Assembly (NCBI GenBank): GCA_963675245.1
Contig: OY775910.1
Span: 864,001 to 928,000, forward strand
Length of the DNA: 64,000 nt
Source of the DNA: Acholeplasmataceae bacterium
GTDB lineage: Bacteria > Bacillota_I > Bacilli_A > Acholeplasmatales > Acholeplasmataceae
Direction of reading: 5' to 3'
The notes under the pieces are model-generated. The model was not told where the DNA came from and did no database searches. It saw only the letters and a program-made list of their open reading frames with translations. Shown piece by piece: positions 11,463-57,393 of the stretch (the first letter of the stretch is position 1; every line of letters starts with the position of its first letter). The translations under genes and the position numbers were made by a program.

Positions 11463-11475
11463 AAGGGAAAACAAC

Positions 11476-28990: not shown

Positions 28991-29020
28991 AAAAGACAGT
29001 TTCATAGACTGTCTTTTTTT
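28989..29020. terminator. Bidirectional intrinsic terminator
   Basis: AAAAAAGACAGT-ttcatag-ACTGTCTTTTTT between convergent genes. Confidence 0.85.
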
Positions 29021-29032: not shown

Positions 29033-30241
29033 CTAACTATCTTTAATCTTGCTTGCTTTCAATGTCTCACAAAATTGAATGGTTGAAAATATATCTTTAT
29101 TATCTAAATAATTATAAATAGTTATAATCGATTGAATATCTTTTTTATCAGTCATGCCTGTATAAGTTATAATTGCTTGTCTTAAGTCAGACTTAGCATC
29201 ATGATAAACAGATTGACTGGATAAGTCATCTTCCTGCTTAAAGAGTAATGCGCCAGCTATACCAATCAATAAAAATGAATAAGGGACCTGATGCTTTTTA
29301 CAGAGATTTATTGAACCTGTGATACGATCATTTGGTGCAAGTTTTCTTTTTGGATCCCTGCCAACCCTAGCAATAGTATCTTTTAACTTATGATTATTAA
29401 AACGGTAAATCAATCGATCATAAAATTGAATCAATTCCTTTAATGGAAAATCACCAGCAGAAATAGCTTGAGCGGATTCTATACCACATGAATAGGTACA
29501 GTACTTAATCTCTGAGTCATTGATTGCCTCATGAATATATTGATAACCCTTTAGTGCACCTAAATATGCGGTAACGGCATGACCCATGTTATGCATAAAC
29601 AATTTTCTTTGAATATATGCTTCAAAAGGTGCATAAGCAATCATGTTTCTAATTTTTGGTATATCGCCAACATAACCATCTTTATCAGTATGTAGAATTT
29701 CAAATTCTTCGACCGTAATATCTGTTGGGTATTTTTGTTCTGACATCACCGGAACCATTCTTCCTATTGATGCTTCAACCAAACCAACTTTAGATAATAT
29801 ATGTTTTGCATCAGATTTTAGTTCTATTGATAACAAATCTTTCATATATGTATTAACATACATGAGATTCTCGCATAGTAAAATATTAAGGACATTTTTC
29901 TTATCTTTATCTCTTAACAATAAACCTTTTGCGATAAGCGGTGTTATATATTTAATAATATTCGCACCAACAGCAGTAGCCATAATATCGCAATCTGCAA
30001 TTTTCTTAATGGCTTGCTCCTCGTTGGTTATTGTATTAATAGCACGAATGTTTTTGATAGTTATTTGGTTTGTTTGATGGTTTGAAACAGTGGTAACTGT
30101 ATATTGCTTATCTTTATTTAATGTATTAATGATCGCATCATTAATGTCTAAAAAGATAACTTCATAACCAGACTGTGATAATAACTGACCAATGAAACCT
30201 CTACCTATATTTCCTGCACCATACATCACGGCTTTTTTCAT
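29033..30241 (-). CDS. mtlD: Mannitol-1-phosphate 5-dehydrogenase family protein
   Basis: GAGNIGRGFIG, TAVG, CEN, GRMVP, RKLFMHNMGHA and RVGRDPKRKL. Confidence 0.8.
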   Translation of the reverse strand: MKKAVMYGAGNIGRGFIGQLLSQSGYEVIFLDINDAIINTLNKDKQYTVTTVSNHQTNQITIKNIRAINTITNEEQAIKKIADCDIMATAVGANIIKYITPLIAKGLLLRDKDKKNVLNILLCENLMYVNTYMKDLLSIELKSDAKHILSKVGLVEASIGRMVPVMSEQKYPTDITVEEFEILHTDKDGYVGDIPKIRNMIAYAPFEAYIQRKLFMHNMGHAVTAYLGALKGYQYIHEAINDSEIKYCTYSCGIESAQAISAGDFPLKELIQFYDRLIYRFNNHKLKDTIARVGRDPKRKLAPNDRITGSINLCKKHQVPYSFLLIGIAGALLFKQEDDLSSQSVYHDAKSDLRQAIITYTGMTDKKDIQSIITIYNYLDNKDIFSTIQFCETLKASKIKDS

Positions 30242-30262
30242 ATATACCTTTCAACTAAACAA

Positions 30263-32731
30263 TTAGACACCTTTTTTGGCTTTCCTTAATTGTTCAGCCA
30301 CAGAATTGTTTTGTTTACTGACATGTCCTTTTAAAGGTAGAATCTTATCATTGATAGCGTCGATAATCCAATCTGCTTGAGGGAAGAAGGTAGCATCAAA
30401 TTCATACGGTGGTGTTATCCAATTCTTTGCACCTACAACAACTGGTGGACCATCTAAATAATCAAATGCCATTTCTGAAATGTTTCTTGCAAAATCATTT
30501 AAGATGGAACCTCTTGCACACGCATCACTTGCTAAAACAATTCGCCCTGTTTTTTTAACAGATTCAATGACTTGTTCATAATTAAAAGGAACGATACTTC
30601 TAGCATCAATCACTTCAGCAGAAACACCATATGTTTCTTCTAATTGTTTAGCCGCTTCCATCGCGTGATATAAGGTTGCACCAATGGTTAAGATTGTGAC
30701 ATCGGAACCTACACGTTTAATGTTTGGTTCACCAAGTGCAATTTCATAATATTCTTCTGGCACACCTGAATCAACAAACTCCTCGCCTTTGTCATATATT
30801 CTTTGTGACTCAAAGAAGACCACTGGATCAGTACCATTGAGTGCGGCATTCATCATACCTTTTGCATCATATGGAGTCACAGGAAATGCTACTTTTAATC
30901 CAGGTACATGAGCCGGTAGCGCTACCCAGTCTTGAGAATGTTGGGCACCATATTTAGAACCAATAGATACTCTTAAAATGACAGGCATCTTTAAGACACC
31001 ACTACTCATCGCTTGCCATTTAGCAAGTTGGTTAAATATTTCATCACCTGCACGTCCCATAAAGTCGGCATACATCAGTTCAATGATGACACGACCACCA
31101 CTTAATCCATAACCAACAGCAGTTGAGACAATCGCTGCTTCAGATATTGGACTATTGAATAATCTATGATAAGGAAGTGCTTCAGTTAAACCTCTGTAAA
31201 CAGCGAATGCGCCACCCCAGTCTCTCACATCTTCACCATAGGAAATCAGTGTTGGATCTTTATAGAAACGGTCGATAATCGCTTCAAAAAGACCATCTCT
31301 GATATTGTATTGTTTTATTTTAGGAATCAATTTACCTTGTTCATCATACGCATAACGAACACGTGATTTAAGTAATTTAACACGGGGGTTTTCTTCATAT
31401 GGTAATAAGAAATCACCTTTTCTAGTAGTGTCAAAAGATTCAACAGCACCATTGCTAAACATAAGTGATTCTACGTAATGAGGATTTTGATCTAAATCAA
31501 GATATGGTGATTTTTCAATATCAGAAGCGACTAAGAATAAGCGATACATTCTATCTTTAACGGCATTTAGGATATCTTCAAATTCACTATCTTTTGCAAT
31601 TTTAGCATCTACAAGTTCTTTTCTAAATGTAATCAGTGGATCGATTGCTTCCCACGCATCAATTTCTTCCTTTGTACGATAACTCATCGCGTCTGATGGT
31701 GAATGTCCACCAAATCGATAAGTGACGACATCTAAGAAAACAGGTCCTTTACCTTCTTTGATAATTTCCATTTTACGTTTATAAGCATCAATCACTGCTA
31801 ACACATTAAACCCATTGATGCGTTCTGTGTGTAATTGGGTTGGACTAATTCCTGCACCAAGTCGAGCAACGAAATCATTAGCCATCGTTTCGCCTCTGGT
31901 TTGACCACCCATACCATATCCGTTATTAAATATATTAAAGATGATTGGAAGACCACTTTGTTCATCCCATAGTTGTGTGAATTGATCCATTGCTGCAAAG
32001 TTAAGTGATTCATAAACGACACCACAACCAAGTGAACCATCACCGACATTAGCGATGACAACGCCATTTTTATGATTAACTCTTTTAAATAGGGCAGCAC
32101 CTGTAGCAATTGGCGCAGAACCACCAACGATTGCGTTATTTGGGTAAATACCAAAAGGTTGGAAGAAGACATGCATACTACCACCCATACCTTTATGGAA
32201 TCCTGTTCTTTTTGCAAAGATTTCAGCTAATGTACCATACAATAAAAAATCAATAGCAAGATCTTTTGAACTCGCATCAGGACTTTCATGTTTAACAACG
32301 TGATATGTTTCCCCATCTTCATAGTTGACCATGATGTCATTCAATGCAGATTCATCTAGTTTATGGATAGAGACTAAACCCCTCGCAAGTACTTCACTAT
32401 GACTTCGATGTGAACCAAATGTTAAATCGTCTTTTTCAAGTAGATAGGCTTGACCAACAGAAGCAGCTTCTTGCCCCATTGATAAATGAGCTGGTCCAGG
32501 ATAAGTAAATTTAAATCCATTGTACTCACCTTTAACTTTAATCGAATAGAGCATACTTTCAAATTCTCTTAATGTTGCCATATCGTGAAACATTCTTAGG
32601 AAATCAGCTTTACTAAATTGTTCTTTTTCATCATTAACAGTCTTATCATAGACGTTTACTGGAATATCTTCGAATGTGATTTTACCTTTTTTTAGCACCT
32701 CTTCAGGATGTATAAATAATGATTTTGGCAT
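30263..32731 (-). CDS. ThDP-dependent 2-oxoacid/acetoin dehydrogenase E1, fused alpha and beta subunits
   Basis: Alpha: HLSMGQEA, HRSH, GGSMH, GDG...NN and YRFGGHS. Beta: GEDV, PISE and GAQHSQ. Confidence 0.9.
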   Translation of the reverse strand: MPKSLFIHPEEVLKKGKITFEDIPVNVYDKTVNDEKEQFSKADFLRMFHDMATLREFESMLYSIKVKGEYNGFKFTYPGPAHLSMGQEAASVGQAYLLEKDDLTFGSHRSHSEVLARGLVSIHKLDESALNDIMVNYEDGETYHVVKHESPDASSKDLAIDFLLYGTLAEIFAKRTGFHKGMGGSMHVFFQPFGIYPNNAIVGGSAPIATGAALFKRVNHKNGVVIANVGDGSLGCGVVYESLNFAAMDQFTQLWDEQSGLPIIFNIFNNGYGMGGQTRGETMANDFVARLGAGISPTQLHTERINGFNVLAVIDAYKRKMEIIKEGKGPVFLDVVTYRFGGHSPSDAMSYRTKEEIDAWEAIDPLITFRKELVDAKIAKDSEFEDILNAVKDRMYRLFLVASDIEKSPYLDLDQNPHYVESLMFSNGAVESFDTTRKGDFLLPYEENPRVKLLKSRVRYAYDEQGKLIPKIKQYNIRDGLFEAIIDRFYKDPTLISYGEDVRDWGGAFAVYRGLTEALPYHRLFNSPISEAAIVSTAVGYGLSGGRVIIELMYADFMGRAGDEIFNQLAKWQAMSSGVLKMPVILRVSIGSKYGAQHSQDWVALPAHVPGLKVAFPVTPYDAKGMMNAALNGTDPVVFFESQRIYDKGEEFVDSGVPEEYYEIALGEPNIKRVGSDVTILTIGATLYHAMEAAKQLEETYGVSAEVIDARSIVPFNYEQVIESVKKTGRIVLASDACARGSILNDFARNISEMAFDYLDGPPVVVGAKNWITPPYEFDATFFPQADWIIDAINDKILPLKGHVSKQNNSVAEQLRKAKKGV

Positions 32732-32742
32732 TGTAATTCCTC

Positions 32743-34113
32743 CTATATATGAAATAAAGCATCTTTAACAAGCTCACCAACTGTTGGATGAGGATAGATG
32801 ATTCGTTTCATTTCTTCAATATTAATTTCAAGGTGCATCATCGCACTCAAGAAAAGTGAAATTTCACTTGCATAAAGCGAAAGCATATGCGCACCAAGTA
32901 GGGTGTTTCTTTTTTGATCAACCACGAGTTTAACAAAACCGTCGTGGTCATTTGATTCAGCTAAATGTCTTCCGGAATAAGAGACAGGTAAAGAAATGAC
33001 TTTAACATCATATCCTTTTTCTTTAGCGACCAACTCCGTATAACCAATACTACATACTTCAGGAGAAGTATATATCACAGATGGTATCTTATCGTAATTG
33101 ATAACGTCTTTTTTACCTAGAAGGGTGTTGATACAAACTTCAGCTTCTTTATATGCTGTATGAGCTAACATGACTTTACCGTTAACATCACCAATCGCAT
33201 ACACGTTCGCAACATTTGTCTTTGTTTGATCATCTGTGATGATTGAACCATTTTTACGTGTGTCAATATATAGGTTTTCTAATCCAAGTTCACTTGTACT
33301 TGCACGTCTACCAACAGATAATAATGCGTAATCAAAGGTGACTGATTCTTCTTGATTGTCTTGGACATACGTCAGTTCTTTTTCAGATACCTTGGTTACT
33401 TTCGCATTTAATTTAAATGTGATGCCTTGTGATTCTAATACTTTTTTAAGTGCTTTTGAAATATCTAGATCAAGTGGTCCGCCAATGGTTGGTAACATTT
33501 CAACTACAGTTACTTTACTCCCTATTTGGGCAAAGTAAGTTGCCATTTCAAGACCAATAACTCCTCCACCAATCACAGTCAGATTTTTAGGAATATCGGT
33601 TAAATCTAATATTTCTCTACTTGTTAAAATCGAACCTTTTTTAATGGCTTCAGCCAATCCTTCGATGGGTGGAATCACCGGTGAAGAACCACTAGCAATA
33701 ATCAGTTTAGTTGAGACATAAATATCACTACCCACTTGGACTTTAAAGCCTTCATTATCTTTTTTAAGAATAGTAGCTAAACCTGAGACAACTGTAACCT
33801 TAGCTGTTTTCAATGTATATCCAACACCAGCAACAAGTGTTTTAACAATGTTGTTTTTACGTTGAACAACTTCCTTTTGATTATAAGTTACATCATTTGC
33901 ATAAACACCATAACTTTCGCCATGCTTTGCATAACGGAAGTGCTTTGCGCTATTTAATAATGCTTTACTTGGAATGCAACCTTCATTCAAACACACGCCA
34001 CCAAGTTTATGCTTCTCGATAACTAATGTTTTTAAACCAGCTTTACCAGCAAGGTCTGCAGCATGATAACCACCAGGACCACCACCGATAATGATTAAAT
34101 CGTAATTATTCAT
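32743..34113 (-). CDS. lpdA: Dihydrolipoyl dehydrogenase (E3)
   Basis: GGGPGGY, GGVCLNEGCIPSK, MLAH and HPTVGE. Confidence 0.95.
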   Translation of the reverse strand: MNNYDLIIIGGGPGGYHAADLAGKAGLKTLVIEKHKLGGVCLNEGCIPSKALLNSAKHFRYAKHGESYGVYANDVTYNQKEVVQRKNNIVKTLVAGVGYTLKTAKVTVVSGLATILKKDNEGFKVQVGSDIYVSTKLIIASGSSPVIPPIEGLAEAIKKGSILTSREILDLTDIPKNLTVIGGGVIGLEMATYFAQIGSKVTVVEMLPTIGGPLDLDISKALKKVLESQGITFKLNAKVTKVSEKELTYVQDNQEESVTFDYALLSVGRRASTSELGLENLYIDTRKNGSIITDDQTKTNVANVYAIGDVNGKVMLAHTAYKEAEVCINTLLGKKDVINYDKIPSVIYTSPEVCSIGYTELVAKEKGYDVKVISLPVSYSGRHLAESNDHDGFVKLVVDQKRNTLLGAHMLSLYASEISLFLSAMMHLEINIEEMKRIIYPHPTVGELVKDALFHI

Positions 34114-34123
34114 GATAAACTCC

Positions 34124-35350
34124 TTATTTTAAACCTTTAGGGTCACTATCGATATGTTTAGAAAATGCTTGTAGATATTCTTTTAAGTCTTTTAAAAATC
34201 TAGAAGCACCAGCACCGTCAAGTACTTGATGATCATATGTGAGTGATAATCCCATTGCTTGATAGAATACAAAGCGACCGTGTTCATCGGTTTTAACTTT
34301 TGTTGAAATAGTATTGACACCTAAAATACCAGTTTGAGGTGGGTTAATAATTGGAGTGAAGTGTTCAATATCCAACGTCCCAAGATTTGAAATTGTAAAT
34401 GATGCATTCGTTAATAAATCGGGATTAATATTGCCAGCGATACATTGAGAAAAGAGTGATTTTGCTTGATTGGAAATATCAACAAGACTCAATGTGTCAG
34501 CATATTGCAACGTCGGTACCATAAGACCTCTTGGTGTATCGGTAGCAATCCCCATATGAACATGTTCGAAAACACGTAATTCACCATTAACGAAGTGTGC
34601 ATTTAAATCCATATGTTTCTTTAAGACTCTAGATACAGCATAAATCATAATATCGTTAAATGTGATTCTAGGTAATGATTGTTGTTCTGATATCCTTTTA
34701 AGTTCTTTTCGATAACTAAATATATCAGTCGCGTCAAATGATAAAGAGTGTGTGAGCTGTGCCGTATTTTGCAAGCTCTTCATCATCGTCTTACCAATAA
34801 TCTTACGCATATTAGAAAGTGATTTAACGGTATAGTCTTGTGTGCCACTTACTTGAACAACTGCAGTACCAACATTTTCAAGAGATACATCACGGTCAAT
34901 CACACGTCCACCTGGACCACTACCTTTGATCGTTTGAATATCTATGTTTTGTTTTTGTGCTTTAACTTTTGCACGAGGACTTGCGAAATGTTCACTTGAG
35001 GAATCTGATTCAACGATGTCTTCAACTTGAATAGACGCAGATGCTTTAGGTTGATCAACTTGAGAAGCCTCCTCGTTAGAAGAAGTAGGTGAGTCAACAT
35101 CGATTTTTTCACCTGGTTCACCAATATAACAAACAGGGGTTAAGACATCGACAATTTCACCTTCTTTGTATAGTAACTTTAAAACAGTGCCTTCAACTTC
35201 TGATGGAAAATCAAAAACTGCTTTATCTGTTTCGTAGCTAAAAAGAATCGTACCGACTTCAATGTTATCATTTTCTTTCACGTGCCAAGCGCTTAAAAAA
35301 CAGCTCTCAACGGTATTACCTTGTTTTGGCATTAATACTGGATTTGCCAT
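34124..35350 (-). CDS. Dihydrolipoamide acyltransferase (E2)
   Basis: Lipoyl domain ETDKA, subunit-binding domain ASPRA...GSGPGGRV, TISNLG and DHQVLDG. Confidence 0.92.
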   Translation of the reverse strand: MANPVLMPKQGNTVESCFLSAWHVKENDNIEVGTILFSYETDKAVFDFPSEVEGTVLKLLYKEGEIVDVLTPVCYIGEPGEKIDVDSPTSSNEEASQVDQPKASASIQVEDIVESDSSSEHFASPRAKVKAQKQNIDIQTIKGSGPGGRVIDRDVSLENVGTAVVQVSGTQDYTVKSLSNMRKIIGKTMMKSLQNTAQLTHSLSFDATDIFSYRKELKRISEQQSLPRITFNDIMIYAVSRVLKKHMDLNAHFVNGELRVFEHVHMGIATDTPRGLMVPTLQYADTLSLVDISNQAKSLFSQCIAGNINPDLLTNASFTISNLGTLDIEHFTPIINPPQTGILGVNTISTKVKTDEHGRFVFYQAMGLSLTYDHQVLDGAGASRFLKDLKEYLQAFSKHIDSDPKGLK

Positions 35351-35352
35351 AA

Positions 35353-36621
35353 TTACACCTCAATCTTTTTTCCGTGTTTAAGTAAATAAGATTCTGCTTC
35401 AACACTCCATAAACCATCATGACGATCACAAATGTTTGCAAGCTCAGCAAAAAGCGGATCGTTTTCGCCAAGTTTTCTAAAATCACTAATATCTGTCATA
35501 GGCATAGAAATATGTGTATAAACTAATTTTTTAGCACCAGGGATTTGTGGCAAATTGAGTGTCGTATCAATCACTGAATCAAGACCACCTACATGAGAAA
35601 TCATAATTTCTGGATGTAGTCTTCCTTTCGCAAACATATCTAGCACTTCTTTCATATCATTCGTGTTACCACCAGAAGTTCCGGTTAAGCGATGTCCTTC
35701 GTAATGTAATTTATAAAAATTAAAGTTTGCTGAAAAGTTAGGATCACTTGGGCCGGCAAAGAAATTTAGACAACCCATTTTAGCCAACAATTGGTTAGCT
35801 TGCTCGACTAAAAATTTTACTGGTGCGAATACAAAAACATCATCATACCCTTCTCCTTGATTAAACGCTTTTAATTGTTCAACTGGATTGTCAAAAGAAC
35901 TTGTATTTATATAGCGTAATTCAATACCTTTTTCTTTAGCGTCACTTGGTCTAACTAATGCTGCTGCTCGATCTAATCTTTCTTGATTAACATCTGTAAC
36001 GACAAGCAGACGAGGTGTAATGTCACGATTTACTGCATAAGCGATTGCCGCTAACCCCATTGGACCACCACCAGCAATAATAATCATGGCACCATCTTTT
36101 TTGATATCCATTTCATGCATATGTGTATCAAAGTTGGATCTAAAGTTTTCATGGAATGCACCTGCAACACATGAAAATGGTTCAGCTAAAGATCCCGAAA
36201 AATAACCTTCACCCTCATATGGCAATAAACATTCCTGAATCATGACCACTTCAGGAATGACAATATAAGTCGCATCTCCACCAATATATTCAAAAGAATA
36301 GCCTGGGGCATCTAAACTGCCTTTATAGTTTAAAGCTGGTTGAATAGAATATTTGTCACCAGGTTTGTATTGTTCTTTCCATTTGTCACCTACTTCGATA
36401 AGTTCTAGACAAAACTCATGACCGATAATCGTAGGATGAGTAGAGATATTATTTGGTACGCGTTTATGATCTTCTCCTTGATTAGCAGCTTTATAAGAAG
36501 ACATGCAGATGCTATCTGAAATAACTTTAGCAAGTATTTCAGTTGTCTTTATGTCTGGTAAATCAAATGTTTCTAATCGTAAATCTTTTTTTCCATAAAT
36601 TCTTACAGCAGTAGTTTTCAT
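35353..36621 (-). CDS. sorE: L-sorbose-1-phosphate reductase-like Zn-binding dehydrogenase
   Basis: SDSICMSSYKA...HKRVP...GHE, IQPAL, GGGPMG, NFFAGP and GTSGG are SorE-family features. GAGGT RBS supports start 36621. Confidence 0.75.
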   Translation of the reverse strand: MKTTAVRIYGKKDLRLETFDLPDIKTTEILAKVISDSICMSSYKAANQGEDHKRVPNNISTHPTIIGHEFCLELIEVGDKWKEQYKPGDKYSIQPALNYKGSLDAPGYSFEYIGGDATYIVIPEVVMIQECLLPYEGEGYFSGSLAEPFSCVAGAFHENFRSNFDTHMHEMDIKKDGAMIIIAGGGPMGLAAIAYAVNRDITPRLLVVTDVNQERLDRAAALVRPSDAKEKGIELRYINTSSFDNPVEQLKAFNQGEGYDDVFVFAPVKFLVEQANQLLAKMGCLNFFAGPSDPNFSANFNFYKLHYEGHRLTGTSGGNTNDMKEVLDMFAKGRLHPEIMISHVGGLDSVIDTTLNLPQIPGAKKLVYTHISMPMTDISDFRKLGENDPLFAELANICDRHDGLWSVEAESYLLKHGKKIEV

Positions 36622-36730
36622 ATTAGTTACCTCGCAGTATTCTAGTTTATCACAATAGTATTTTACTATAACAATCAAAAAAATGTTTATAATGTTCAAT
36701 TCGTTGTAAAATCATCTTTTTAATGATAAA

Positions 36731-36760
36731 ATAAAATCATAAATAAACATAAACGATCAT
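36731..36760. promoter_or_regulatory. Three imperfect 10-bp direct repeats in the sorE/deoR divergent region, putative DeoR operator
   Basis: ataaaatcat aaataaacat aaacgatcat; read on the minus strand these are ATGAT/ATGTT-core repeats. Confidence 0.4.
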
Positions 36761-36774
36761 ATGGAGGAGTTATT

Positions 36775-37536
36775 GTGTCATATTTGGAAAGACAAGATGA
36801 TATATTGAATATTTTATCCAATGAAAAAGTAGTAAGTGTCCAGAAATTATCTGCAACATTATATGTCAGTGAAGCTACCATAAGAAGAGATTTGATCCGA
36901 ATGGATAATTTAGGATTAATTAGACGCACACATGGTGGCGCGATGATTGCTAAAAATACGGCACAAGAATCATCGTTCGCGATGCGTGAAGTAGAAAACC
37001 TATCTGCAAAAAAATTATTATGTTCACTGGCGTTAGCACACATCACTGATCACAGTGTGATTTATATGGATAGTAGTTCAACAGTGATGCCAATCATTCC
37101 TATGCTTCAAAGATTTCAACATTTAACAGTAATTACACACGGCATCAGAACAGCACTTCTTTTATCGAACCTCGAAAATGTAGAGGTTTATGTGGCCGGT
37201 GGAAGATTAGGAAATTTTTCAAACTCAATTTTGGGACAATCCGTTATTGAGTTTTATGATCAGATTAATGCTGACATTGCATTATTGTCATGTAGTGGCA
37301 TTGATGAAAAGGGAGATATTACAGATAACAGCATGGAACAAGCAAAAATTAAAAAGCAGATTGTAGATAAAAGTAAAAAGGTCATTATGTTGGCCGATCA
37401 AACGAAATTTGGTAAAACATTTATGAATACAACTTTCCAACTACAAGATGTTGATATATTTATCACAGATAAAGATATGCCTGAAACATTTATAGAAGTC
37501 TTTAATCAGTATGAAGGAGAAGTGATTAAACCATAA
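36775..37536 (+). CDS. DeoR/GlpR family transcriptional regulator
   Basis: VSEATIRRDL...RTHGGA HTH plus DeoRC sensor domain (DSSST, LADQTKFG). Confidence 0.93.
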   Translation: MSYLERQDDILNILSNEKVVSVQKLSATLYVSEATIRRDLIRMDNLGLIRRTHGGAMIAKNTAQESSFAMREVENLSAKKLLCSLALAHITDHSVIYMDSSSTVMPIIPMLQRFQHLTVITHGIRTALLLSNLENVEVYVAGGRLGNFSNSILGQSVIEFYDQINADIALLSCSGIDEKGDITDNSMEQAKIKKQIVDKSKKVIMLADQTKFGKTFMNTTFQLQDVDIFITDKDMPETFIEVFNQYEGEVIKP

Positions 37537-37563
37537 AAAAAGGAACTTTTCGTTCCTTTTTTT
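37535..37563. terminator. Bidirectional intrinsic terminator
   Basis: AAAAAAAGGAAC-ttttc-GTTCCTTTTTTT. Confidence 0.8.
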
Positions 37564-38341
37564 AATGCATTATTTGTCCACCTGTGACATTGATTGCTTG
37601 ACCAGTCATGTAGCTTGAGAGATCTGAAGCCAAGAAGACGACCATGTTTTCAATGTCTTCATATTCACAACTGCGTTTGAGTGGGACTTGATTGATATAT
37701 TTTTCTCTAATCTTTTCTTCAGTGGTATGTTGGTTTTGAGCATATTGTTTAAACAAGCTATTCACCCAGAGTGGTGAATTCAAAAGATTACCAGGACAGA
37801 TACTGTTAACTCTAACGTTAAACTCAGCAAACTCTTTAGCTAGACTTTGAGTTAAACCGATACCACCAAACTTACTTGCTGCATATGCACCATTTTTATA
37901 AGAACCCACCTTGCCAGATTTACTATTAATTTGGATGATAGAGCCTTTGCGGTTTTCAATCATCATCGGTGCGAATGCTTTAACAGTATTGAAATAGCCA
38001 TTTAGGTTGACATCAATAACCTTTTTAAAATGAGCAGAAGAAAGCGTGTTAATATCTCCACTTAATAAAATGCCAGCATTTGATACGAGAATATCAACTC
38101 GACCAAATTTAGATTTAACATCATTCGCAACACTCTCACATTGTTCATAGTTTGTGATATCAAGCGCATATGGATATGCATTCTCTATATCAGAACAAAC
38201 TTTTTTTACACCTTCATAGTTGATATCACAAGCGATGACAGTACAACCTTCATTTGATAATCTAAGTGCAATTGCTTCACCTAAACCTTGTGATACGCCA
38301 GTGACAACAGCGACTTTGTCTTTCAAATTTATTTCACTCAT
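37562..38341 (-). CDS. srlD: Sorbitol-6-phosphate 2-dehydrogenase-like SDR
   Basis: SrlD signature IQINSKSGKVG...YAASKFGGIGLTQSLA, plus GNLLNSP and TGQAINVTGGQ. Confidence 0.85.
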   Translation of the reverse strand: MSEINLKDKVAVVTGVSQGLGEAIALRLSNEGCTVIACDINYEGVKKVCSDIENAYPYALDITNYEQCESVANDVKSKFGRVDILVSNAGILLSGDINTLSSAHFKKVIDVNLNGYFNTVKAFAPMMIENRKGSIIQINSKSGKVGSYKNGAYAASKFGGIGLTQSLAKEFAEFNVRVNSICPGNLLNSPLWVNSLFKQYAQNQHTTEEKIREKYINQVPLKRSCEYEDIENMVVFLASDLSSYMTGQAINVTGGQIMH

Positions 38342-39591
38342 TTTAAAGCCTCTTTTCTTGCATATGAACTAAAGAACTTAATACGTTCACTAATGGACAT
38401 ATGCTGATATGTATTTCCTAACAATCCATCTTCAGGATTTTTTTTATATAATTTTTCATGTGCAACTAACGCCCAAGCGGAATCAATTAAATGATGATGT
38501 TTTGGATATTGATAAGCAGAACAATTAAAACTTTGTCTAGGTGAATTGATATCTTCTCCGGATATTTCAATCATATGATATTTATGTGCTAAGGCATGAA
38601 TACGATCGATTTGTTCTTCTGTATTTCTGGTTGGCATATATGCAATGGCAGGTACGCCAATCTCTTTTAATGCGATAATTAATTCTTCTAAAAATGCATC
38701 TTCAAATGTTTGTGCTCTTTTATCACCAGTAACTGATTCAACAACATCACCTAAATACGGATAAGCCGGGATTGCACCATGTGCTTTAGCAAACGCAACA
38801 TATTCCTTCGCATCTGGTAACTCATCTGTCGCAGGAATGAAGAATTTTGAAGTGTTTGATTTAATGACACCTAAAATATCATATAGCAATAAGTCGTTAT
38901 TTTTAGATAGAAGTAATGCTCTTTGTTTCTTTGATACCTTGATTTCAAATGTTTGCGATACGTAGTCAATTAATTGATTCATGTCAGTGAAATGATGAAG
39001 TAATTTTTGTGCTAAAGCAAATAGTATGTGCCTTTCTGTTACAGTGCCACCCTCTTCAACCTTAGAAATAGATTGTACATCGCGTTTATAATCTAGCACA
39101 ATATCAGAAGATGCGATTAACCGATTGACTTTATCTACAATTAAACGATTTCTTTTTTCACGATTATCACGATAAGGTTTTAAAAATACATCAAATGAAG
39201 CAATGCTTTCTTCTGGGATGGCATGCGCCACCATATACATCACATTATTCTGATCAGGGTTATTGATCCTACGATTAAAGGTATCAAATTTAACACGTAA
39301 TTCTACACCAGCAGTTGAAGCGATACCTAGTAAATCAGAAGCGTCATGAAATTCTTTAATGCCTGCAACAGTATCATGATCAATAATACCTGCAACACTT
39401 AAACCGGCTTGATATGCACTATAAGCTGCATGTGTTGGTGAATACGGTGAAAAGGAATAAAACGTATGGATGTGATTATTCACATCATGTTCATTAATTT
39501 CTCTAACAGCATTGTGGTAACTGAGTATTTCTTCGAGTGCACTGATGCGATCAGATAATATGCCTTCGTTTAGTTTATTGATAATTTTCAT
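38338..39591 (-). CDS. PHP domain-containing protein
   Basis: NHIHTFYS, IIDHD and GVE motifs; ATGA overlaps with both neighbouring genes. Confidence 0.75.
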   Translation of the reverse strand: MKIINKLNEGILSDRISALEEILSYHNAVREINEHDVNNHIHTFYSFSPYSPTHAAYSAYQAGLSVAGIIDHDTVAGIKEFHDASDLLGIASTAGVELRVKFDTFNRRINNPDQNNVMYMVAHAIPEESIASFDVFLKPYRDNREKRNRLIVDKVNRLIASSDIVLDYKRDVQSISKVEEGGTVTERHILFALAQKLLHHFTDMNQLIDYVSQTFEIKVSKKQRALLLSKNNDLLLYDILGVIKSNTSKFFIPATDELPDAKEYVAFAKAHGAIPAYPYLGDVVESVTGDKRAQTFEDAFLEELIIALKEIGVPAIAYMPTRNTEEQIDRIHALAHKYHMIEISGEDINSPRQSFNCSAYQYPKHHHLIDSAWALVAHEKLYKKNPEDGLLGNTYQHMSISERIKFFSSYARKEALK

Positions 39592-40685
39592 TTACTTTGC
39601 ACCTTAAACCTGTAATGTTCAACTTCCCAATTCAATATGAAATTAATGTCATCATCTGTCATTGGTTTAGATCCACCGAAATACTGACTATAGTATCCAA
39701 TTTTTATTTGATCAAGAAATAGAAGTCTCGCATTTTCGGATTGTTTTTGACTATCACCTACCGCATACATACCAGATCCTTTGAGCAGTATAATGCGTGG
39801 TGGGAAGCCAAATTTGTCAATATATGTCTGATATGTTAATTGTAAATTATCAAACGATGTATAAAGTGGTTCGTGTCGGCAATACACCACATGATCTGGC
39901 GTAAATGATGTTCTGACTTTTTGATAAGAAGAAGGGTTTTCTAGAATATCATCTATGGCATGATTCTTCTCAAATGTCACATATTTATGCACATCAAGTG
40001 ATTTGATGGCAGACAGATGAATATCAAAGATAGCTTTATCTAAAGATGTTTTTGACAAGTCAATATCAGATTTAATTTGTTGATTAATCTTAGCCATTAA
40101 AGCATCAACTAATTGGTCAATTTCTTCTATACTATCAGCTGCGAAGAACACACCATGATTCTCTAAGAGAAGTATTTGAGGTATCACATGATGCTTTTTT
40201 TCATGTGCTTCCATTTTTTCTTTACAGGTTATCGCTAGTATATATCCTGGTTTAGTCGCTTCTACCCATACGACGTTATGTGATAAATGATTTTCAACCC
40301 AAGATTCACCAGATAGACCACATGTTACGGCATTTACTTTTGTTGGATGTAGATGTAATACAAATTTAAAGGGAAATAAGTCATGTAGCTGTGTTTCAAC
40401 AGAAGGTCTATTTATTTCACCCTCACATCTCGCATCCATGAGATCTTTTAAAACTTCCTTTTCACGATTCGATGTTTGATCGCTATAGGTCACATGCCAC
40501 ATATGATTAAGCTTCTTACGATCAAGTTTAACAAAGCCATCTTCTTTAATCGTTGCTAGTTGATAACCACTTGCTTTTACAATCAATGTGTTATCATCTT
40601 TAGCACTTGTATTTCCACCACCAGCTAAAACAAATTCTGATTGAGCACCATATTTGTTGGACATTTTTATTAATTCGGTTAACAT
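39588..40685 (-). CDS. Class II aldolase/adducin family protein (rhamnulose-1-phosphate aldolase-like, RhaEW N-domain type)
   Basis: GGGNTS, KASG, PSVETQLH, HLHP, ENHG, TPDHVVY and WEVEHYR. Confidence 0.8.
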   Translation of the reverse strand: MLTELIKMSNKYGAQSEFVLAGGGNTSAKDDNTLIVKASGYQLATIKEDGFVKLDRKKLNHMWHVTYSDQTSNREKEVLKDLMDARCEGEINRPSVETQLHDLFPFKFVLHLHPTKVNAVTCGLSGESWVENHLSHNVVWVEATKPGYILAITCKEKMEAHEKKHHVIPQILLLENHGVFFAADSIEEIDQLVDALMAKINQQIKSDIDLSKTSLDKAIFDIHLSAIKSLDVHKYVTFEKNHAIDDILENPSSYQKVRTSFTPDHVVYCRHEPLYTSFDNLQLTYQTYIDKFGFPPRIILLKGSGMYAVGDSQKQSENARLLFLDQIKIGYYSQYFGGSKPMTDDDINFILNWEVEHYRFKVQSK

Positions 40686-40917
40686 ATTAGTTTGCTCCTT
40701 TAATGATCATCGACTCCGTGTATGACACTGTCATTATATGTGAATCAAACATTATTTACAATCTAAAATTTTCAAATTATAATCAAAAAGATTAATCACG
40801 TTTTACCCTCAAATATTTATATATTTGAGTCAAAGAAACAAAATCTTTCGGATTTGTAAAATACAAAAAAAATATGATTTTGAGTAAAAAAAGTGATATA
40901 AAAAATCAATAATTACA

Positions 40918-40926
40918 TGATATACT
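40918..40926 (+). promoter_or_regulatory. Extended -10 (TGaTATACT) of rhaBA
   Basis: Lies just upstream of the AGGAG RBS. Confidence 0.45.
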
Positions 40927-40953
40927 TGAAAAGAGACAACAGGAGTGATAGTT

Positions 40954-42270
40954 ATGAAAAGTGTAAGAATCGCTATTGATATTGGTGCGAGTGGTGGTAG
41001 GCATTTAGCGTATTATATCGAAAATGGTAAAGATATTTATGAAGAAGTTTACCGCTTTAAAAACTACATGTCAGGAACACCAGAATATAGTTTAATTTGG
41101 GATTATCAACGCTTAGTTGATAATGTCTTCAAAGGATTAAAAATTGCTTTTGAGACATATGATGAAGTCCTATCGGTTGGTCTTGATACATGGGGTGTAG
41201 ATTATGCATTGCTCGATGAAAAAAAAGAGGTTATTAAGCCTGTTTTTGCATATCGGAATCCCAGAACTGAAGCAATCATAAAAGAAGTGCATGAGATTAT
41301 TTCGTTTGAAAAATTATATGAAATTACAGGTTCACAATTCCAGTCTTTTAACACAATTTACCAATTATATTGTGATAAAAAAAGCGGTAAATTAGATAAA
41401 GCTAAACACTTTTTAATGATGCCGGAATTCTTATATTACAAATTAACTGGTCTGATGTTGCAAGAGTATACAGAAACGAGCACTTCAGGTATGATTGATT
41501 TAAAAACGAATGATTTTTCAACTGAAATAATTGAAAAATTAAGTTATCCAAAACACTTATTTGATAAACCTGTTCAACCAGGGATTTTCCATCCTTTAGC
41601 TGAAGATGTTTCCAAAGCTTTAGGTGGTCAAACTAAAGTTTGTTTAGTGGCTACACATGATACTGCAAGTGCAGTTGAAGGGGTGGATATTGATCTTAAT
41701 CAAGCATACTTATCAAGTGGTACTTGGTCATTATTAGGTATGAAAGTAAAAGAACCGATTTTGACAGAAATAGCCAGAGAAAATAATTTCTCTCATGAAG
41801 GTGGCATTGGTTATATCAGATTCCAAAAAAACATCATGGGATTATGGATGACACAGTTTTTAAAAAATGAATTAGGTTATGATGATTATTTTCAAATGGC
41901 GGATGATGCAAGTTGCTCCACATGTTGTGAATTGATTGACGTTAATGATGAGTCATTTCTAGCTCCAGTATCCATGAAAGATGCGATTTTTGATTATTTA
42001 AAAAAGCATCATAAAAAGCTACCGGAAACAAATGGCGATATTTTAAATGTGGTTTACCACAGTTTAGCAAAATCATATGAAGATGCATTAGATGAACTAG
42101 AAGAAATAACAGGCAAAAAAATAGAAACCTTAACCATATTTGGTGGGGGTGCACAAAACAAATATTTTAATAAAGTGATTAAGAAATATTCAACCAGAGA
42201 TTTAGTGATACATCCAATAGAAGCAACCGCTATTGGAAATTTAAGAGTACAGGAGAAATATGATGAGTAG
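40954..42270 (+). CDS. rhaB: Rhamnulokinase
   Basis: AIDIGASGGR, DTWGVDY, NTIYQL, THDTASAV, SSGTWSLLG, KNIMGLW and EATAIGN; adjacent to rhaA. Confidence 0.9.
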   Translation: MKSVRIAIDIGASGGRHLAYYIENGKDIYEEVYRFKNYMSGTPEYSLIWDYQRLVDNVFKGLKIAFETYDEVLSVGLDTWGVDYALLDEKKEVIKPVFAYRNPRTEAIIKEVHEIISFEKLYEITGSQFQSFNTIYQLYCDKKSGKLDKAKHFLMMPEFLYYKLTGLMLQEYTETSTSGMIDLKTNDFSTEIIEKLSYPKHLFDKPVQPGIFHPLAEDVSKALGGQTKVCLVATHDTASAVEGVDIDLNQAYLSSGTWSLLGMKVKEPILTEIARENNFSHEGGIGYIRFQKNIMGLWMTQFLKNELGYDDYFQMADDASCSTCCELIDVNDESFLAPVSMKDAIFDYLKKHHKKLPETNGDILNVVYHSLAKSYEDALDELEEITGKKIETLTIFGGGAQNKYFNKVIKKYSTRDLVIHPIEATAIGNLRVQEKYDE

Positions 42271-43504
42271 ATTTGAAGATGCGAAGAAAATATATGAATC
42301 GTTTGGTGTCAATGTAGAACAGGCATTAGATACATTAAAAAAAATACCTATATCCATTCATTGTTGGCAAGGTGACGATGTTCGCGGGTTTGAATCTGAT
42401 GAACAAGCGTTAACGGGTGGCATTCAAGCAACAGGGAATTATCCAGGTCGTGCGCATGGATTCAAGGAATTAAGTAGAGATTTAGAAAAAGCATTCCAAC
42501 ATATTCCTGGTTCGAAACGCGTCAACTTGCATGCGATTTATGCTGTATCTGATAAACCCATTGGAAGAAATGATATTAAAAACGAACATTTTGATCCATG
42601 GTTAGAATTTGCGAAGAAAAACAATGTTAAATTAGATTTCAATCCAACCTTTTTCTCATCACCTATGGTAAAAGATAATCTAACATTATCTTCACCTGAT
42701 GAAGAAGTGAGATCTTTTTGGATTGAACATGGTGTCATTTCAAGAGACATCGCAGCATATATTGGTGAAAAACAAGAATCACCATGCTTATTTAATGTAT
42801 GGATTCCAGATGGTATGAAAGACACACCTGCTGATCGCGTTGGACCGCGATTAAGATTAAAAGATTCACTAGATAAAATCTTTAAGAAACCACTAAAAGA
42901 CGATGTTGTTATTGATGCTGTTGAGTCTAAAGTGTTCGGTATTGGATTAGAGTCGTATACGGTTGGTTCTCAAGAATTTTATATGAACTATGCACAACAA
43001 AAAGGCGTTTGTTGTCTCATTGATAATGGGCATTATCACCCAACTGAAAATGTTGCAGATAAATTATCATCCATGTTAATTTTTAATAAATATGTCGCAT
43101 TACATGTCACAAGACCTGTCCGCTGGGATAGTGATCACGTGGTCTTATTTGATGATATTACAAAAGATATCGCACGCGAAATCATTCAGTCAAAACAACC
43201 TGAACGTTTCTTAATTGGCCTCGATTATTTCGATGCGTCTATTAACAGAATTGCAGCTTGGATACTAGGTACAAGAAACTTCCAAAAAGCACTCTTACAA
43301 GCATTATTACTGCCACATGAATATATGACAAAACTTCAAAACAATGGTGAGTTCACTGAACTACTAGTTCTGAATGAAGAACTAAAAACATTACCATTTC
43401 ATGATGTTTGGGAAGCGTATTGTAAAAGTGAAAATGTATCACCAGACATGACTTGGTTTGATGATGTAAAAACATATGAGAAAGAGATTTTATCAAAACG
43501 TTAA
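42263..43504 (+). CDS. rhaA: L-rhamnose isomerase
   Basis: HCWQGDDV, NLHAIY, DFNPT, WIPDG, ESKVFGIG, GHYHPTE, RWDSDHV and DYFDASINR; start at 42260 or 42263. Confidence 0.95.
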   Translation: MSRFEDAKKIYESFGVNVEQALDTLKKIPISIHCWQGDDVRGFESDEQALTGGIQATGNYPGRAHGFKELSRDLEKAFQHIPGSKRVNLHAIYAVSDKPIGRNDIKNEHFDPWLEFAKKNNVKLDFNPTFFSSPMVKDNLTLSSPDEEVRSFWIEHGVISRDIAAYIGEKQESPCLFNVWIPDGMKDTPADRVGPRLRLKDSLDKIFKKPLKDDVVIDAVESKVFGIGLESYTVGSQEFYMNYAQQKGVCCLIDNGHYHPTENVADKLSSMLIFNKYVALHVTRPVRWDSDHVVLFDDITKDIAREIIQSKQPERFLIGLDYFDASINRIAAWILGTRNFQKALLQALLLPHEYMTKLQNNGEFTELLVLNEELKTLPFHDVWEAYCKSENVSPDMTWFDDVKTYEKEILSKR

Positions 43505-48484: not shown

Positions 48485-48492
48485 CAAGAGCA

Positions 48493-50064
48493 ATGAAATT
48501 TCTGAACATGTTTAAAAACCCATTATTTAAAACAAAGATTAAAACAGCAAAAGTAAACAAAAAGGAAATGATCATAGGTTATTTCTTAGCACCATTCCTT
48601 GCATTAATGTCAAATGCCATCTTTGGATCTTACTTAAATCGTTATTTCTCTGATGTTATTGGGTGGACAGATGCAACCAGATTTGGTGTGTTCTCGGCGT
48701 TATTACCAATGTTATCTGTCATTTTAGTTATCGCTGGAAATGTATTTATTGGAAGATTGATTGATAAAACAAAAACACCAGCAGGTAAAGCAAGACCGTA
48801 TTTAATTCTTGCAGCTCCACTATTAGTTATTACAATGGCATTGTTGTTCTCTAATCCAATCAACAGTAGTCCTGTTATTCAAATGATTTGGATTGCCATT
48901 TCGTATAACTTATATTATGCATTAGCTTATCCAATTTATTATGCGTCTCATAGTGCGATGGTTGGTTTATCTACGAGAGATTCAAATAAACGTGGCTTAT
49001 TATCAACTATGTCAAATGCATCAGCAGTAGCTGCTGTAGGTATTGGCGCAAGCATGATTGTTCCATTCTTTATGATGAGTTTCTTGTTTGCTGAAACAAA
49101 TGGCGTATTAGATGTTCAACAAAGTTATGCTAACTGGCGTATCTTAATGATTATTCTTTGTGGTGTCACTTTCTTAGCAACATTGTTAGAATATTTCTTC
49201 ACAAGAGAAAGAATCACAGAAGAAGTTACTCATGAAGAACATTTAAGTGCACCAAAAATTTCAACTAAAGAACAGATTAAAGCATGTGTAACAAATAAAT
49301 ATTGGTGGATTATCATTCTTTATTTCCTACTGTTTCAATTAGGTGGACTAGTGAAGAATGGGTCTATGGTTTACTATAGCAGATGGATGTTTGATACAGT
49401 AACCGATGAAGCTAGTGCTGGACAAGTGATGGCTTTAATAGGCTTAATAGGAGGTATACCAACCGCAATTGGCATGTTACTCGCTTGGCCATTAGCAAAT
49501 AAACTTGGTAAGAAAAATGCAATCTTTCTAGGTTTGATTATTTCAGTTATCGGTGGCGCGGTAAGCTTCATAAATGTTCATAGCGTCTTAATGGTAAGTA
49601 TTGGTATTGTTTTAAAAGGTATAGGTTCCATTCCTGCGATGTATGTCACATTAGCATTATTGTCTGATGTACTTGATCACATGGAAGCTAAAAATAGGTT
49701 TAGAAGTGATGGATTCACAATGGCAATATACGGATCGATCATGGTAGGTTTATTAGGACTAGGCAACGGATTAATTAATGCACTATTAAGTGTCACTGGT
49801 TATGACCCGCTCGCTTCAACACAGTCGGGTGGTGTACAAACAGTATTGGTCATCTGTTTCTTAGGACTTGAATTGGCATTATATGCAGTCATTGTTGTAT
49901 TATTCCAATTCATGAATGTAGAAAAACATATTAAAGAAGATCAAGAGACGATTAAAGAGTATCAAAAACAGAAGGTTCTTGCAGCTGGAGGAGAGTGGAT
50001 TGATCCAGAAGAAAGATTAAGGATGGAGCAAGAAGCGGACGAAAGCGAGTTGAAAAAAACTTAA
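48493..50064 (+). CDS. MFS glycoside-pentoside-hexuronide (GPH/MelB-like) transporter
   Basis: About 12 TM segments, GRLIDKTKTPAGKARPY and FTRERI. Confidence 0.88.
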   Translation: MKFLNMFKNPLFKTKIKTAKVNKKEMIIGYFLAPFLALMSNAIFGSYLNRYFSDVIGWTDATRFGVFSALLPMLSVILVIAGNVFIGRLIDKTKTPAGKARPYLILAAPLLVITMALLFSNPINSSPVIQMIWIAISYNLYYALAYPIYYASHSAMVGLSTRDSNKRGLLSTMSNASAVAAVGIGASMIVPFFMMSFLFAETNGVLDVQQSYANWRILMIILCGVTFLATLLEYFFTRERITEEVTHEEHLSAPKISTKEQIKACVTNKYWWIIILYFLLFQLGGLVKNGSMVYYSRWMFDTVTDEASAGQVMALIGLIGGIPTAIGMLLAWPLANKLGKKNAIFLGLIISVIGGAVSFINVHSVLMVSIGIVLKGIGSIPAMYVTLALLSDVLDHMEAKNRFRSDGFTMAIYGSIMVGLLGLGNGLINALLSVTGYDPLASTQSGGVQTVLVICFLGLELALYAVIVVLFQFMNVEKHIKEDQETIKEYQKQKVLAAGGEWIDPEERLRMEQEADESELKKT

Positions 50065-57392: not shown

Positions 57393-57393
57393 T

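Follow-up and report, generated by a model that had tools for sequence, protein, structure and literature searches.

Plant pectins, mucins and algal polymers contain rhamnose and fucose as major sugars, and the textbook fermentation of the two discards half of the carbon as 1,2-propanediol. Methyl ketols of the type CH3-CO-CHOH-R are split into acetyl-CoA and an aldehyde by the E1/E2/E3 components of the acetoin dehydrogenase system AcoABCL, while SorE is an L-sorbose-1-phosphate reductase and SorD/SrlD a glucitol-6-phosphate dehydrogenase. The present study concerns a locus in which relatives of these enzymes are encoded next to rhamnose isomerase and rhamnulokinase. It occupies positions 29033-43504 of a stretch of 64,000 nucleotides, hereafter called the window, from an Acholeplasmataceae bacterium (GenBank assembly GCA_963675245.1, contig OY775910.1, positions 864,001 to 928,000 of the forward strand).

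Three described systems come close to it. RhaEW, represented by YuxG of Bacillus subtilis and Caur_2283 of Chloroflexus, is a bifunctional rhamnulose-1-phosphate aldolase/lactaldehyde dehydrogenase that forms lactate and dihydroxyacetone phosphate (DHAP) in vitro, according to the original report, which also describes the phosphate site and zinc triad residues of RhaD and RhaE (Rodionova et al. 2013, PMC3870299). For Caldicellulosiruptor bescii, another study states that lactaldehyde reductase and dehydrogenase are both missing and that the last reaction of rhamnose breakdown is probably carried out by a dehydrogenase of three subunits that is homologous to acetoin dehydrogenase; its genes, Athe_0702-4, belong to the rhamnose regulon of a DeoR-family regulator (RhaR2), their function was left unassigned and a direct use of lactaldehyde was guessed (Rodionov et al. 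2021, PMC8579813). The relevant part of a review places 1-deoxy-fructose-6-phosphate (1-deoxy-F6P) in a branch of 1,5-anhydroglucitol catabolism relying on YbiW/PflD and fructose-6-phosphate (F6P) aldolase, where downstream aldolases split it into glyceraldehyde-3-phosphate (G3P) and hydroxyacetone (PMC13450708). Our full-text literature search found no biochemical description of a pathway such as the one considered below.

We conclude that the locus is real and non-canonical and that it belongs to an uncharacterised module of wide distribution, linked to the catabolism of 6-deoxyhexoses. Our tentative interpretation, to which we give a little less than an even chance, is that in this L-rhamnose catabolic locus a conserved module replaces the RhaD aldolase and lactaldehyde reductase and produces a methyl ketol phosphate that is cleaved by the lipoamide complex.

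Organization of the rhamnose locus

A preliminary description of the window had listed eleven genes: rhaB-rhaA, an aldolase, a PHP protein, srlD, deoR and a sorE/E2/E3/E1/mtlD group. All were found where it had placed them, and scans with Pfam and NCBIfam models bore out their families, apart from the aldolase label discussed below. Together with the adjoining supply genes, they are as follows.

29033..30241, minus strand: MtlD-like polyol-phosphate dehydrogenase, final gene of the complex operon (Mannitol_dh 133 bits, Mannitol_dh_C 126.6 bits)
30263..32731, minus strand: fused E1 alpha-beta, the thiamine-diphosphate component, 822 aa (E1_dh, Transket_pyr and Transketolase_C domains)
32743..34113, minus strand: E3 dihydrolipoyl dehydrogenase (TIGR01350 485.8, cut-off 408.8)
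34124..35350, minus strand: E2 lipoyl acyltransferase (Pfam Biotin_lipoyl, E3_binding and 2-oxoacid_dh)
35353..36699, minus strand: SorE/YggP-family Zn-dehydrogenase, putative ketose-1-phosphate reductase (47-49% identity to annotated sorE and yggP)
36775..37536, plus strand: DeoR/GlpR-family regulator, divergent from the complex operon (HTH_DeoR and DeoRC domains)
37562..38341, minus strand: SrlD-like short-chain dehydrogenase, SDR (NF009050 321.7, cut-off 307)
38338..39591, minus strand: PHP-fold protein, 417 aa, translationally coupled to both neighbours (predicted structure and Foldseek)
39588..40685, minus strand: RhaE-type class II aldolase (Aldolase_II 61.8 bits)
40945..42270, plus strand: rhaB, rhamnulokinase (TIGR02627 391.8, its top match, yet below the cut-off of 527.95)
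42260..43504, plus strand: rhaA, L-rhamnose isomerase (NF002203 642, cut-off 572)
45929..50064, plus strand: GH78 alpha-L-rhamnosidase and MFS_2 glycoside transporter, rhamnose supply (Pfam matches)

The minus-strand genes form two tight operons, as indicated by overlaps of 4 nt each between the RhaE and PHP genes and between the PHP and SDR genes, and by gaps of 21, 11, 10 and 2 nt from the MtlD-like to the SorE-like gene. The first operon, RhaE-PHP-SDR, diverges from rhaBA over 259 nt; the second, SorE-like-E2-E3-E1-MtlD-like, diverges from deoR and is followed, after its final MtlD-like gene, by a two-way terminator-like hairpin at 28989-29019. Besides GH78 rhamnosidases and the MFS_2 transporter, the window codes for further glycosidases.

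RhaA and RhaB supply the isomerase and the kinase of the canonical phosphorylated rhamnose pathway, whereas no clear lactaldehyde reductase or dehydrogenase is encoded in the window or elsewhere in the genome, a single contig of 1.63 Mb estimated to be 99.96% complete. The 41 open reading frames (ORFs) scanned in the window carry no Fe-ADH, aldehyde dehydrogenase or phosphotransferase system (PTS) domain, in agreement with the earlier remark that it holds neither a lactaldehyde reductase or dehydrogenase nor a PTS for sorbose, sorbitol or mannitol. Genome-wide, the Fe-ADH domain occurs in one atypical protein of 578 aa, and the only aldehyde dehydrogenase is MdlD-like, reaching 166.6 on the lactaldehyde dehydrogenase model against a cut-off of 650.

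The dehydrogenases of the locus belong to families named after PTS-dependent pathways. Over 93-94% of its length, the Zn-dehydrogenase shares 47-49% identity with genes annotated as sorE on Serratia, Citrobacter and Klebsiella plasmids and with Escherichia coli yggP; since these relatives align from about residue 25, its true start probably lies some 25 codons downstream of the listed TTG. The MtlD-like protein falls below the MtlD equivalog (286 at best, cut-off 356), and its fold family is clear, with MtlD 3h2z as best solved structure (218 bits). A SorE-family reductase and a SrlD-family dehydrogenase, as in the L-sorbose/glucitol pathway, are both encoded; the PTS of that pathway is absent, as the genome has zero matches to the EIIC families PF03609, PF02378 and PF03608, which cover the sorbose/mannose, glucose/mannitol/fructose and glucitol types. 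The PTS routes after which the SorE-like, SrlD-like and MtlD-like enzymes are named can therefore not supply them here, and an ordinary PTS-fed sorbose, sorbitol or mannitol cluster was rejected on this ground. RhaB is the sole adjacent kinase forming a ketose-1-phosphate.

A proposed route through a methyl ketol phosphate

Judging by homology, rhamnosides are imported and cleaved, and RhaA and RhaB deliver L-rhamnulose-1-phosphate. In the scheme that we favour, the RhaE-type aldolase, the PHP-fold protein and the SorE-like and SrlD-like (or MtlD-like) dehydrogenases would then shift the carbonyl of the 6-deoxyhexulose phosphate to its methyl end. The resulting 1-deoxy-2-ketose phosphate would be a methyl ketol, CH3-CO-CHOH-R, which the E1 alpha-beta/E2/E3 complex could split into acetyl-CoA, NADH and a tetrose phosphate, in the way acetoin dehydrogenase treats acetoin.

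One concrete version had been put forward in the preliminary description. RhaE would cleave rhamnulose-1-phosphate into DHAP and L-lactaldehyde, and a D-threo-specific aldolase would re-condense them into 6-deoxy-L-sorbose-1-phosphate; this compound would be converted via 1-deoxy-glucitol-6-phosphate and 1-deoxy-F6P into acetyl-CoA and erythrose-4-phosphate (E4P). The net reaction would turn rhamnose, ATP, CoA and NAD+ into acetyl-CoA, E4P and NADH with no propanediol. Fischer projections drawn by hand indicate that only this variant keeps the native SorE and SrlD configurations and ends in D-erythrose-4-phosphate. It is coherent and stereochemically the tidiest, and we rank it first among the variants as the leading hypothesis, while regarding it, taken alone, as unlikely. 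Genome context supports the general idea of methyl ketol cleavage that it embodies, but the PHP and MtlD-like proteins find no place in it and no re-condensing aldolase has been pinned down.

It is equally doubtful that the fused-E1/E2/E3 complex represents the first member of the 2-oxoacid dehydrogenase complex family with a sugar phosphate as natural substrate, namely 1-deoxy-F6P. The SorE-like and SrlD/MtlD-like enzymes would form this compound from the half of rhamnose or fucose that ends up as lactaldehyde, and its cleavage to acetyl-CoA and E4P would amount to a carbon-conserving, propanediol-free 6-deoxyhexose pathway of wide occurrence among anaerobes of gut, rumen and sediment. The recurrence of transaldolase/F6P-aldolase (TAL/FSA) genes near the complex in other genomes fits either an E4P product or a 1-deoxy-F6P intermediate. 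The PHP protein, acting with RhaE, could reset the configuration at C3/C4 without freeing lactaldehyde.

Two other ways of reaching a methyl ketol phosphate were considered. A route through F6P aldolase, joining hydroxyacetone and G3P into 1-deoxy-F6P, was rejected for this genome, which has no gene of the TAL/FSA family; it is possible in those Bacteroidota loci that carry an FSA-type gene. An aldolase-free route, in which C2 of rhamnulose-1-phosphate or fuculose-1-phosphate is reduced and C5 oxidised, has the appeal that both substrates converge, since C4 becomes the aldehyde carbon. It was retained only as a minor variant because it yields L-erythrose-4-phosphate or D-threose-4-phosphate instead of D-erythrose-4-phosphate and leaves the RhaE-type enzyme idle.

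Conservation of the module

The same order was sampled with 151 genomes, including the host genome (G000). The fused E1 is encoded in three of them (G000, G110 and G131) and rhaA in 12; the two genomes with both genes (G000 and G131) have them within about 10 kb of each other. Among the sampled genomes of the family, rhaA is restricted to these two complex-carrying genomes, where it adjoins the complex, and none of the six other sampled members of the genus carries either gene. The gene order in G131 is GH78, rhaA, rhaB, PHP, SDR, RhaE-like, deoR, SorE-like, E2, E3, E1. For comparison, three of the ten order genomes positive for rhaA and negative for the fused E1 were picked (L084, L085 and L087). 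All three possess rhaB-rhaA-rhaD, with a RhaD that passes PRK03634, and one has fucO (675, cut-off 537), which is suggestive of the module taking the place of RhaD and lactaldehyde reductase in the rhaBA clusters of this order. The entire rhamnose locus looks horizontally acquired. The fused E1 shares 74-75% identity with proteins that bear the label Clostridia or Christensenellaceae and 87% with that of its closest named relative, Peloplasma aerotolerans (L002).

A scan of one genome per species returned 428 pattern matches, 403 of which encode a relative of the fused E1; the best 80 loci, with an E1 54-87% identical to that of the window, were kept. They span Bacteroidota, Clostridia, Spirochaetota, Bryobacterales, Lentisphaerae, Kiritimatiellae, Ignavibacteria, Calditrichia and others. 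Locus ORFs were labelled by BLASTP against the window proteins, and the remainder were clustered and their representatives named with Pfam and NCBIfam. The following counts over 80 E1 loci are lower bounds, since 8 kb on both sides were available in 32 loci only, and the SDR cluster may hold a few unrelated SDRs.

E2: 64 of 80
E3: 54 of 80
SorE-like: 36 of 80
SDR or RhaEW-like: 32 of 80
DeoR: 25 of 80
PHP: 23 of 80
RhaE domain: 18 of 80
Transaldolase or F6P-aldolase family: 13 of 80
Lipoate-protein ligase: 10 of 80
rhaA, FGGY kinase, fucI or GH78: 10 of 80
MtlD-like: 9 of 80
GntR: 9 of 80

An SDR/RhaEW-like or MtlD-like gene is present in 31 of the 35 loci of the SorE-like cluster, and 20 of the 23 loci with a PHP gene also have an SDR or RhaEW-like gene. 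The steadiest companions of the complex are thus an enzyme of the ketose-1-phosphate reductase type and one of the hexitol-phosphate 2-dehydrogenase type (SDR or MtlD-like). Genome-wide searches covered 50 of the 80 carrier genomes, mostly those with longer loci, leaving 30 aside. They detected rhaA in 27, fucI in 31 (two of these matches being weak or partial), a SorE-like ortholog at E <= 1e-40 in 32 and a class II aldolase-family gene in 43. Of these carriers, 35 have rhaA or fucI and 15 have neither. The anticorrelation with fucO predicted in the preliminary description is not strict, as a near-threshold lactaldehyde reductase gene lies beside the module in L013.

These data bear on the possibility that the two operons of the window are chance neighbours and that the DeoR-linked one serves a polyol- or ketose-phosphate pathway of its own that has nothing to do with rhamnose. 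Peloplasma, which has the operon but showed neither rhaA nor fucI nor a class II aldolase, would be explained in this way, as would the scarcity of rha and fuc genes within the fetched flanks, where they were met in just 10 of 80 loci. Chance hardly accounts for the confinement of rhaA, within the family, to the two complex-bearing genomes and to the vicinity of the complex, for the 35 of 50 carriers endowed with rhaA or fucI, or for the RhaEW-like or PHP genes directly adjoining E1 in many phyla; a polyol pathway would moreover have to operate in a genome devoid of the three PTS types searched. We hold this explanation to be very improbable.

Several recurrent neighbours of the complex deserve mention in their own right. 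The short TAL/FSA genes have a Tyr in the APYV.R motif in three of five cases (Bacteroidota) and a Phe in the other two (Clostridia); we take Tyr at this position to mark F6P aldolases and Phe transaldolases. Seven Bryobacterales loci (L042, L044, L057, L062, L065, L073 and L076) carry a divergent transaldolase-like gene directly upstream of E2-E3-E1 (343 aa, 103 bits, cut-off 367), and the SorE-like gene is absent from the four genomes of this set that were searched. The transaldolase-like gene and the complex may together represent the system in its smallest form. In Christensenellaceae and other Clostridia, thiamine salvage genes of the thiE or thiM type lie a few genes from the fused-E1 operon (L035, L053 and L075), a C_GCAxxG_C_C redox protein is encoded nearby (L035, L047 and L053) and an RmuC gene recurs just downstream (L030, L041 and L043).

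A protein of about 435 aa with two tandem class II aldolase domains occurs in L001, L013, L019, L021 and L032 as well as in many carriers, beside the SorE-like gene and elsewhere in the genome. Its best NCBIfam match is the 3-oxo-tetronate-4-phosphate decarboxylase (162, cut-off 250), followed by FucA. The presence of this double aldolase in five loci led us to consider a route in which 6-deoxy-5-ketohexulose-1-phosphate would give acetyl-CoA and a 3-oxotetrose phosphate, the latter then losing one carbon to become DHAP; we dismissed it as pure speculation.

The lipoamide complex

A thiamine-diphosphate E1, a lipoyl E2 and an E3 are encoded together in the window, as in acetoin dehydrogenase operons. 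The fused E1 scores below all pyruvate dehydrogenase (PDH) equivalog cut-offs, with 219.8 against 393.85 for the alpha and 229.6 against 321 for the beta subunit. A conventional second complex is encoded at 841.8-848.4 kb, with a PdhA scoring 474 (cut-off 411) accompanied by PdhB, E2 and E3. As this true PDH is present elsewhere in the genome, the fused-E1 complex is not the PDH of the cell, and the idea that it might be its sole PDH was discarded. We know of no sequence signature separating E1s that cleave methyl ketols from those acting on 2-oxoacids, nor of reliable E1 markers for carboxylate or phosphate binding.

A further explanation is that the complex acts on a three-carbon unit, converting either L-lactaldehyde into lactoyl-CoA or its isomer or oxidation product, hydroxyacetone or methylglyoxal, into acetyl-CoA and a one-carbon unit. 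It would be in line with the use of lactaldehyde guessed for the three-subunit dehydrogenase of C. bescii (Rodionov et al. 2021, PMC8579813). Lactaldehyde is the product that rhamnose and fucose catabolism have in common, and the complex is linked to genes for both sugars; the linkage persists in genomes without a SorE-like gene. Such reactions would leave the sugar-phosphate-type dehydrogenases, the PHP protein, the DeoR-type regulator and the TAL/FSA genes unaccounted for, and formaldehyde or formate would be released. To our knowledge, there is no precedent for reactions of lactaldehyde, hydroxyacetone or methylglyoxal in E1/E2/E3 complexes. Taking both sides together, we find a three-carbon substrate distinctly improbable.

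The aldolase, the short-chain dehydrogenase and the PHP-fold protein

The aldolase had been labelled RhaD-like, which proved wrong: its top NCBIfam matches are the N-terminal RhaE halves of bifunctional aldolase/SDR models, and no RhaD model is among its matches. PF00596 has a single match in the genome, which makes this RhaE-type gene the sole class II aldolase-family gene and the only candidate for a rhamnulose-1-phosphate aldolase. The GGGN, RPSVE, HxHP and QNHG motifs are kept in all 13 aldolase-domain rows of our alignment (A2). Mapped by motif, not by structure, onto the published reference residues (PMC3870299), the zinc-binding His triad and the phosphate-binding Gly-Asn of RhaEW are conserved in the RhaE-type protein.

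The RhaE-type protein and the SDR align with the respective halves of aldolase/SDR fusions at 38% identity each, the SDR matching residues 378-648 of the fusion from L034. The SDR retains the S...YxxxK motif, and its best solved structure is SrlD 5o3z (205 bits), ahead of the 604-aa multidomain chain 2et6 (171 bits) and of single-domain SDRs from 143 bits down. By sequence, it corresponds to the SDR half of RhaEW-like fusions, encoded here as a gene of its own. The one-chain RhaEW equivalog (TIGR02632/PRK08324) does not describe the locus, where two separate genes are found. All eight tested RhaEW-like fusions accompanying E1 score 220-295 bits on TIGR02632, far under its cut-off of 567.75, and are therefore not members of the characterised RhaEW subfamily; at the E-value limits applied, six of the eight also match the SrlD model with 215-249 bits. 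In several carrier genomes, it is rhaA and not E1 that has a RhaE-type gene as neighbour, either standing alone (about 375 aa) or as part of a RhaEW-like fusion, which fits a rhamnose-specific role.

The resemblance to RhaEW raises another possibility, that of a split RhaEW combined with a second PDH. RhaE and the SDR would turn rhamnulose-1-phosphate into DHAP and L-lactate, lactate would be converted to pyruvate, the complex would be a sugar-regulated PDH, and the SorE-like, MtlD-like and PHP proteins would serve another purpose. The alignment of both proteins with the two fusion halves agrees with this, as do the lactate and DHAP formed by RhaEW in vitro (PMC3870299) and the proximity of the fused E1 to PDH and branched-chain E1s. 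Moreover, among the 18 of 50 carriers without a SorE-like gene, four (G024, G031, G040 and G050) encode RhaEW-like fusions, and those of G031, G050 and G024 stand beside rhaA or within about 8 kb of it. The genome already has a true PDH, however, no lactate dehydrogenase or oxidase appears among the recurrent neighbour clusters, the eight fusions scored do not belong to the characterised subfamily, and the tight linkage of SorE-like, PHP and TAL/FSA genes to E1 would be left aside. We therefore consider a split RhaEW feeding a second PDH quite unlikely.

With 23.8 bits, the Pfam match of the PHP protein stays under its gathering score (26.4). The predicted model (pLDDT 91.5, from a 19-row alignment) has as top Foldseek matches the PHP phosphoesterases 3o0f/3e0f, RNase AM 9etk and Cv1693 2yb1, with E values of 7e-12 to 9e-10 and TM scores of about 0.7 on the target, and it bears a large helical insertion. 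Invariant residues include H40, H42, D71, E97 and H188, and the N-terminal HxH, D71 and E97 align with ligands of PHP proteins. Asparagines (N110 and N349) at later ligand positions suggest that the chemistry may differ. Prediction of a RhaE-PHP complex gave a score of 0.49 (runs of 0.49, 0.00 and 0.59), against 0.00 for the best control; the runs share at least 45% of contacts and the partners have a pLDDT of at least 86. Of 157 solved complexes, 116 reach the mark set for this score, compared with two of 215 mismatched pairs; 18 of those 157 do so with at most 0.60, as do both passing mismatches. The modelling lends weak support to an association between RhaE and PHP.

Points that weigh against methyl ketol cleavage

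A number of observations count against the cleavage of a methyl ketol phosphate that we favour. In the host, the scheme gives no step to the PHP and MtlD-like proteins. The genome encodes transketolase and RpiB; without a TAL/FSA gene, E4P could be put to net use only in some other way. No re-condensation enzyme could be pinned down, the candidates being a ketose-bisphosphate aldolase-like gene at 11476-12330 of the window and another FBA-like gene near 723 kb. The fused E1 is nearest to PDH and branched-chain E1s by sequence, and no sugar-phosphate site is apparent in it.

Other difficulties come from the relatives. Peloplasma aerotolerans maintains the SorE-like/E2/E3/E1/MtlD-like operon with no match for rhaA, fucI or a class II aldolase, and both rhaA and fucI are lacking in 15 of the 50 searched carriers. 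Ten of the 18 carriers without a SorE-like gene still have rhaA or fucI, which implies that the complex can act without the proposed carbonyl transposition. Many loci of Spirochaetota, Lentisphaerae and Bryobacterales consist of DeoR-E2-E3-E1 or TAL-like-E2-E3-E1 alone, amid unrelated neighbours, and in L013 a gene adjoining the module nearly passes the lactaldehyde reductase equivalog (491, cut-off 523). The SorE-less carriers, the lone E1 operons, Peloplasma, the unplaced PHP and MtlD-like proteins, the missing transaldolase and L013 together keep the three alternatives discussed above alive.

Other features of the window

A second sugar cluster at 7648-12330 comprises an FGGY kinase, a DUF4432 protein, AraA and the class II ketose-bisphosphate aldolase-like gene mentioned above. 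The kinase is xylulokinase-like (270 bits, under the cut-off) and AraA scores 637.6 (cut-off 622). The genome has no AraD-type epimerase, its sole PF00596 match being the RhaE-type gene, and arabinose may for this reason be split by an aldolase route instead of the textbook epimerase route.

At 4771-7401, an 876-aa fusion of DUF1015 (381 bits) with a complete Glu/Leu/Phe/Val dehydrogenase comes after genes for a class V aminotransferase and a D-2-hydroxyacid dehydrogenase. A GH3-type protein of 1463 aa encoded at 50129-54520 has its C- and N-terminal domains swapped; it also contains an Ig domain of the He_PIG type and, close to its C-terminus, a collagen triple-helix repeat. A second GH3 protein with swapped domain order is encoded at 57367-60471.

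Implications and comparison with known systems

If methyl ketol cleavage is confirmed, 6-deoxyhexoses would provide acetyl-CoA, hence extra ATP through acetate, together with a four-carbon sugar phosphate. Predicted yields, propanediol and propionate cross-feeding and genome-based metabolic models of gut, rumen and sediment carriers would be altered. The reaction scope of lipoamide multienzyme complexes would be widened to sugar phosphates, and functions would be provided for a large protein family whose members bear no annotation beyond 'alpha-ketoacid dehydrogenase subunit alpha/beta', 'zinc-binding dehydrogenase' or PHP protein.

The locus lies outside the RhaEW, PDH and MtlD equivalogs and lacks the PTS by which the sorbose and glucitol pathways are defined. 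Like RhaEW, it has an SDR and a class II aldolase domain whose metal and phosphate motifs are the same, in a rha locus where they replace RhaD. It departs from RhaEW in that the halves are encoded individually and a PHP-fold gene lies in between, the SDR passes the SrlD model, and PHP, the SorE-like gene and the lipoamide complex are found alongside. The Athe_0702-4 complex of C. bescii, a likely counterpart, is likewise acetoin-dehydrogenase-like, linked to DeoR and rhamnose and found in an organism without lactaldehyde reductase or dehydrogenase (PMC8579813). The 1,5-anhydroglucitol branch establishes 1-deoxy-F6P as a real bacterial metabolite handled by FSA-type aldolases, genes for which occur in Bacteroidota loci of the module, but it makes this compound by glycyl radical enzymes and without a lipoamide complex (PMC13450708).

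The AcoABCL system has the same thiamine E1, lipoyl E2 and E3 and performs the type of reaction proposed here. In contrast to it, the E1 of the window is one fused chain, the E2 has a classical 2-oxoacid_dh catalytic domain, the AcoC model NF011457 covers just the N-terminal lipoyl part of this E2 (58.6, cut-off 307), no acetoin genes are present and the proposed substrate is a sugar phosphate. Finally, the sorbose pathway differs by its PTS, as no sorbose, glucitol or mannitol PTS is found here and the genes sit with rha and a lipoamide complex. Its SorE and SorD/SrlD pair nevertheless moves a carbonyl from C2 to C5 via a hexitol phosphate, which is the very logic proposed for the rhamnose locus.

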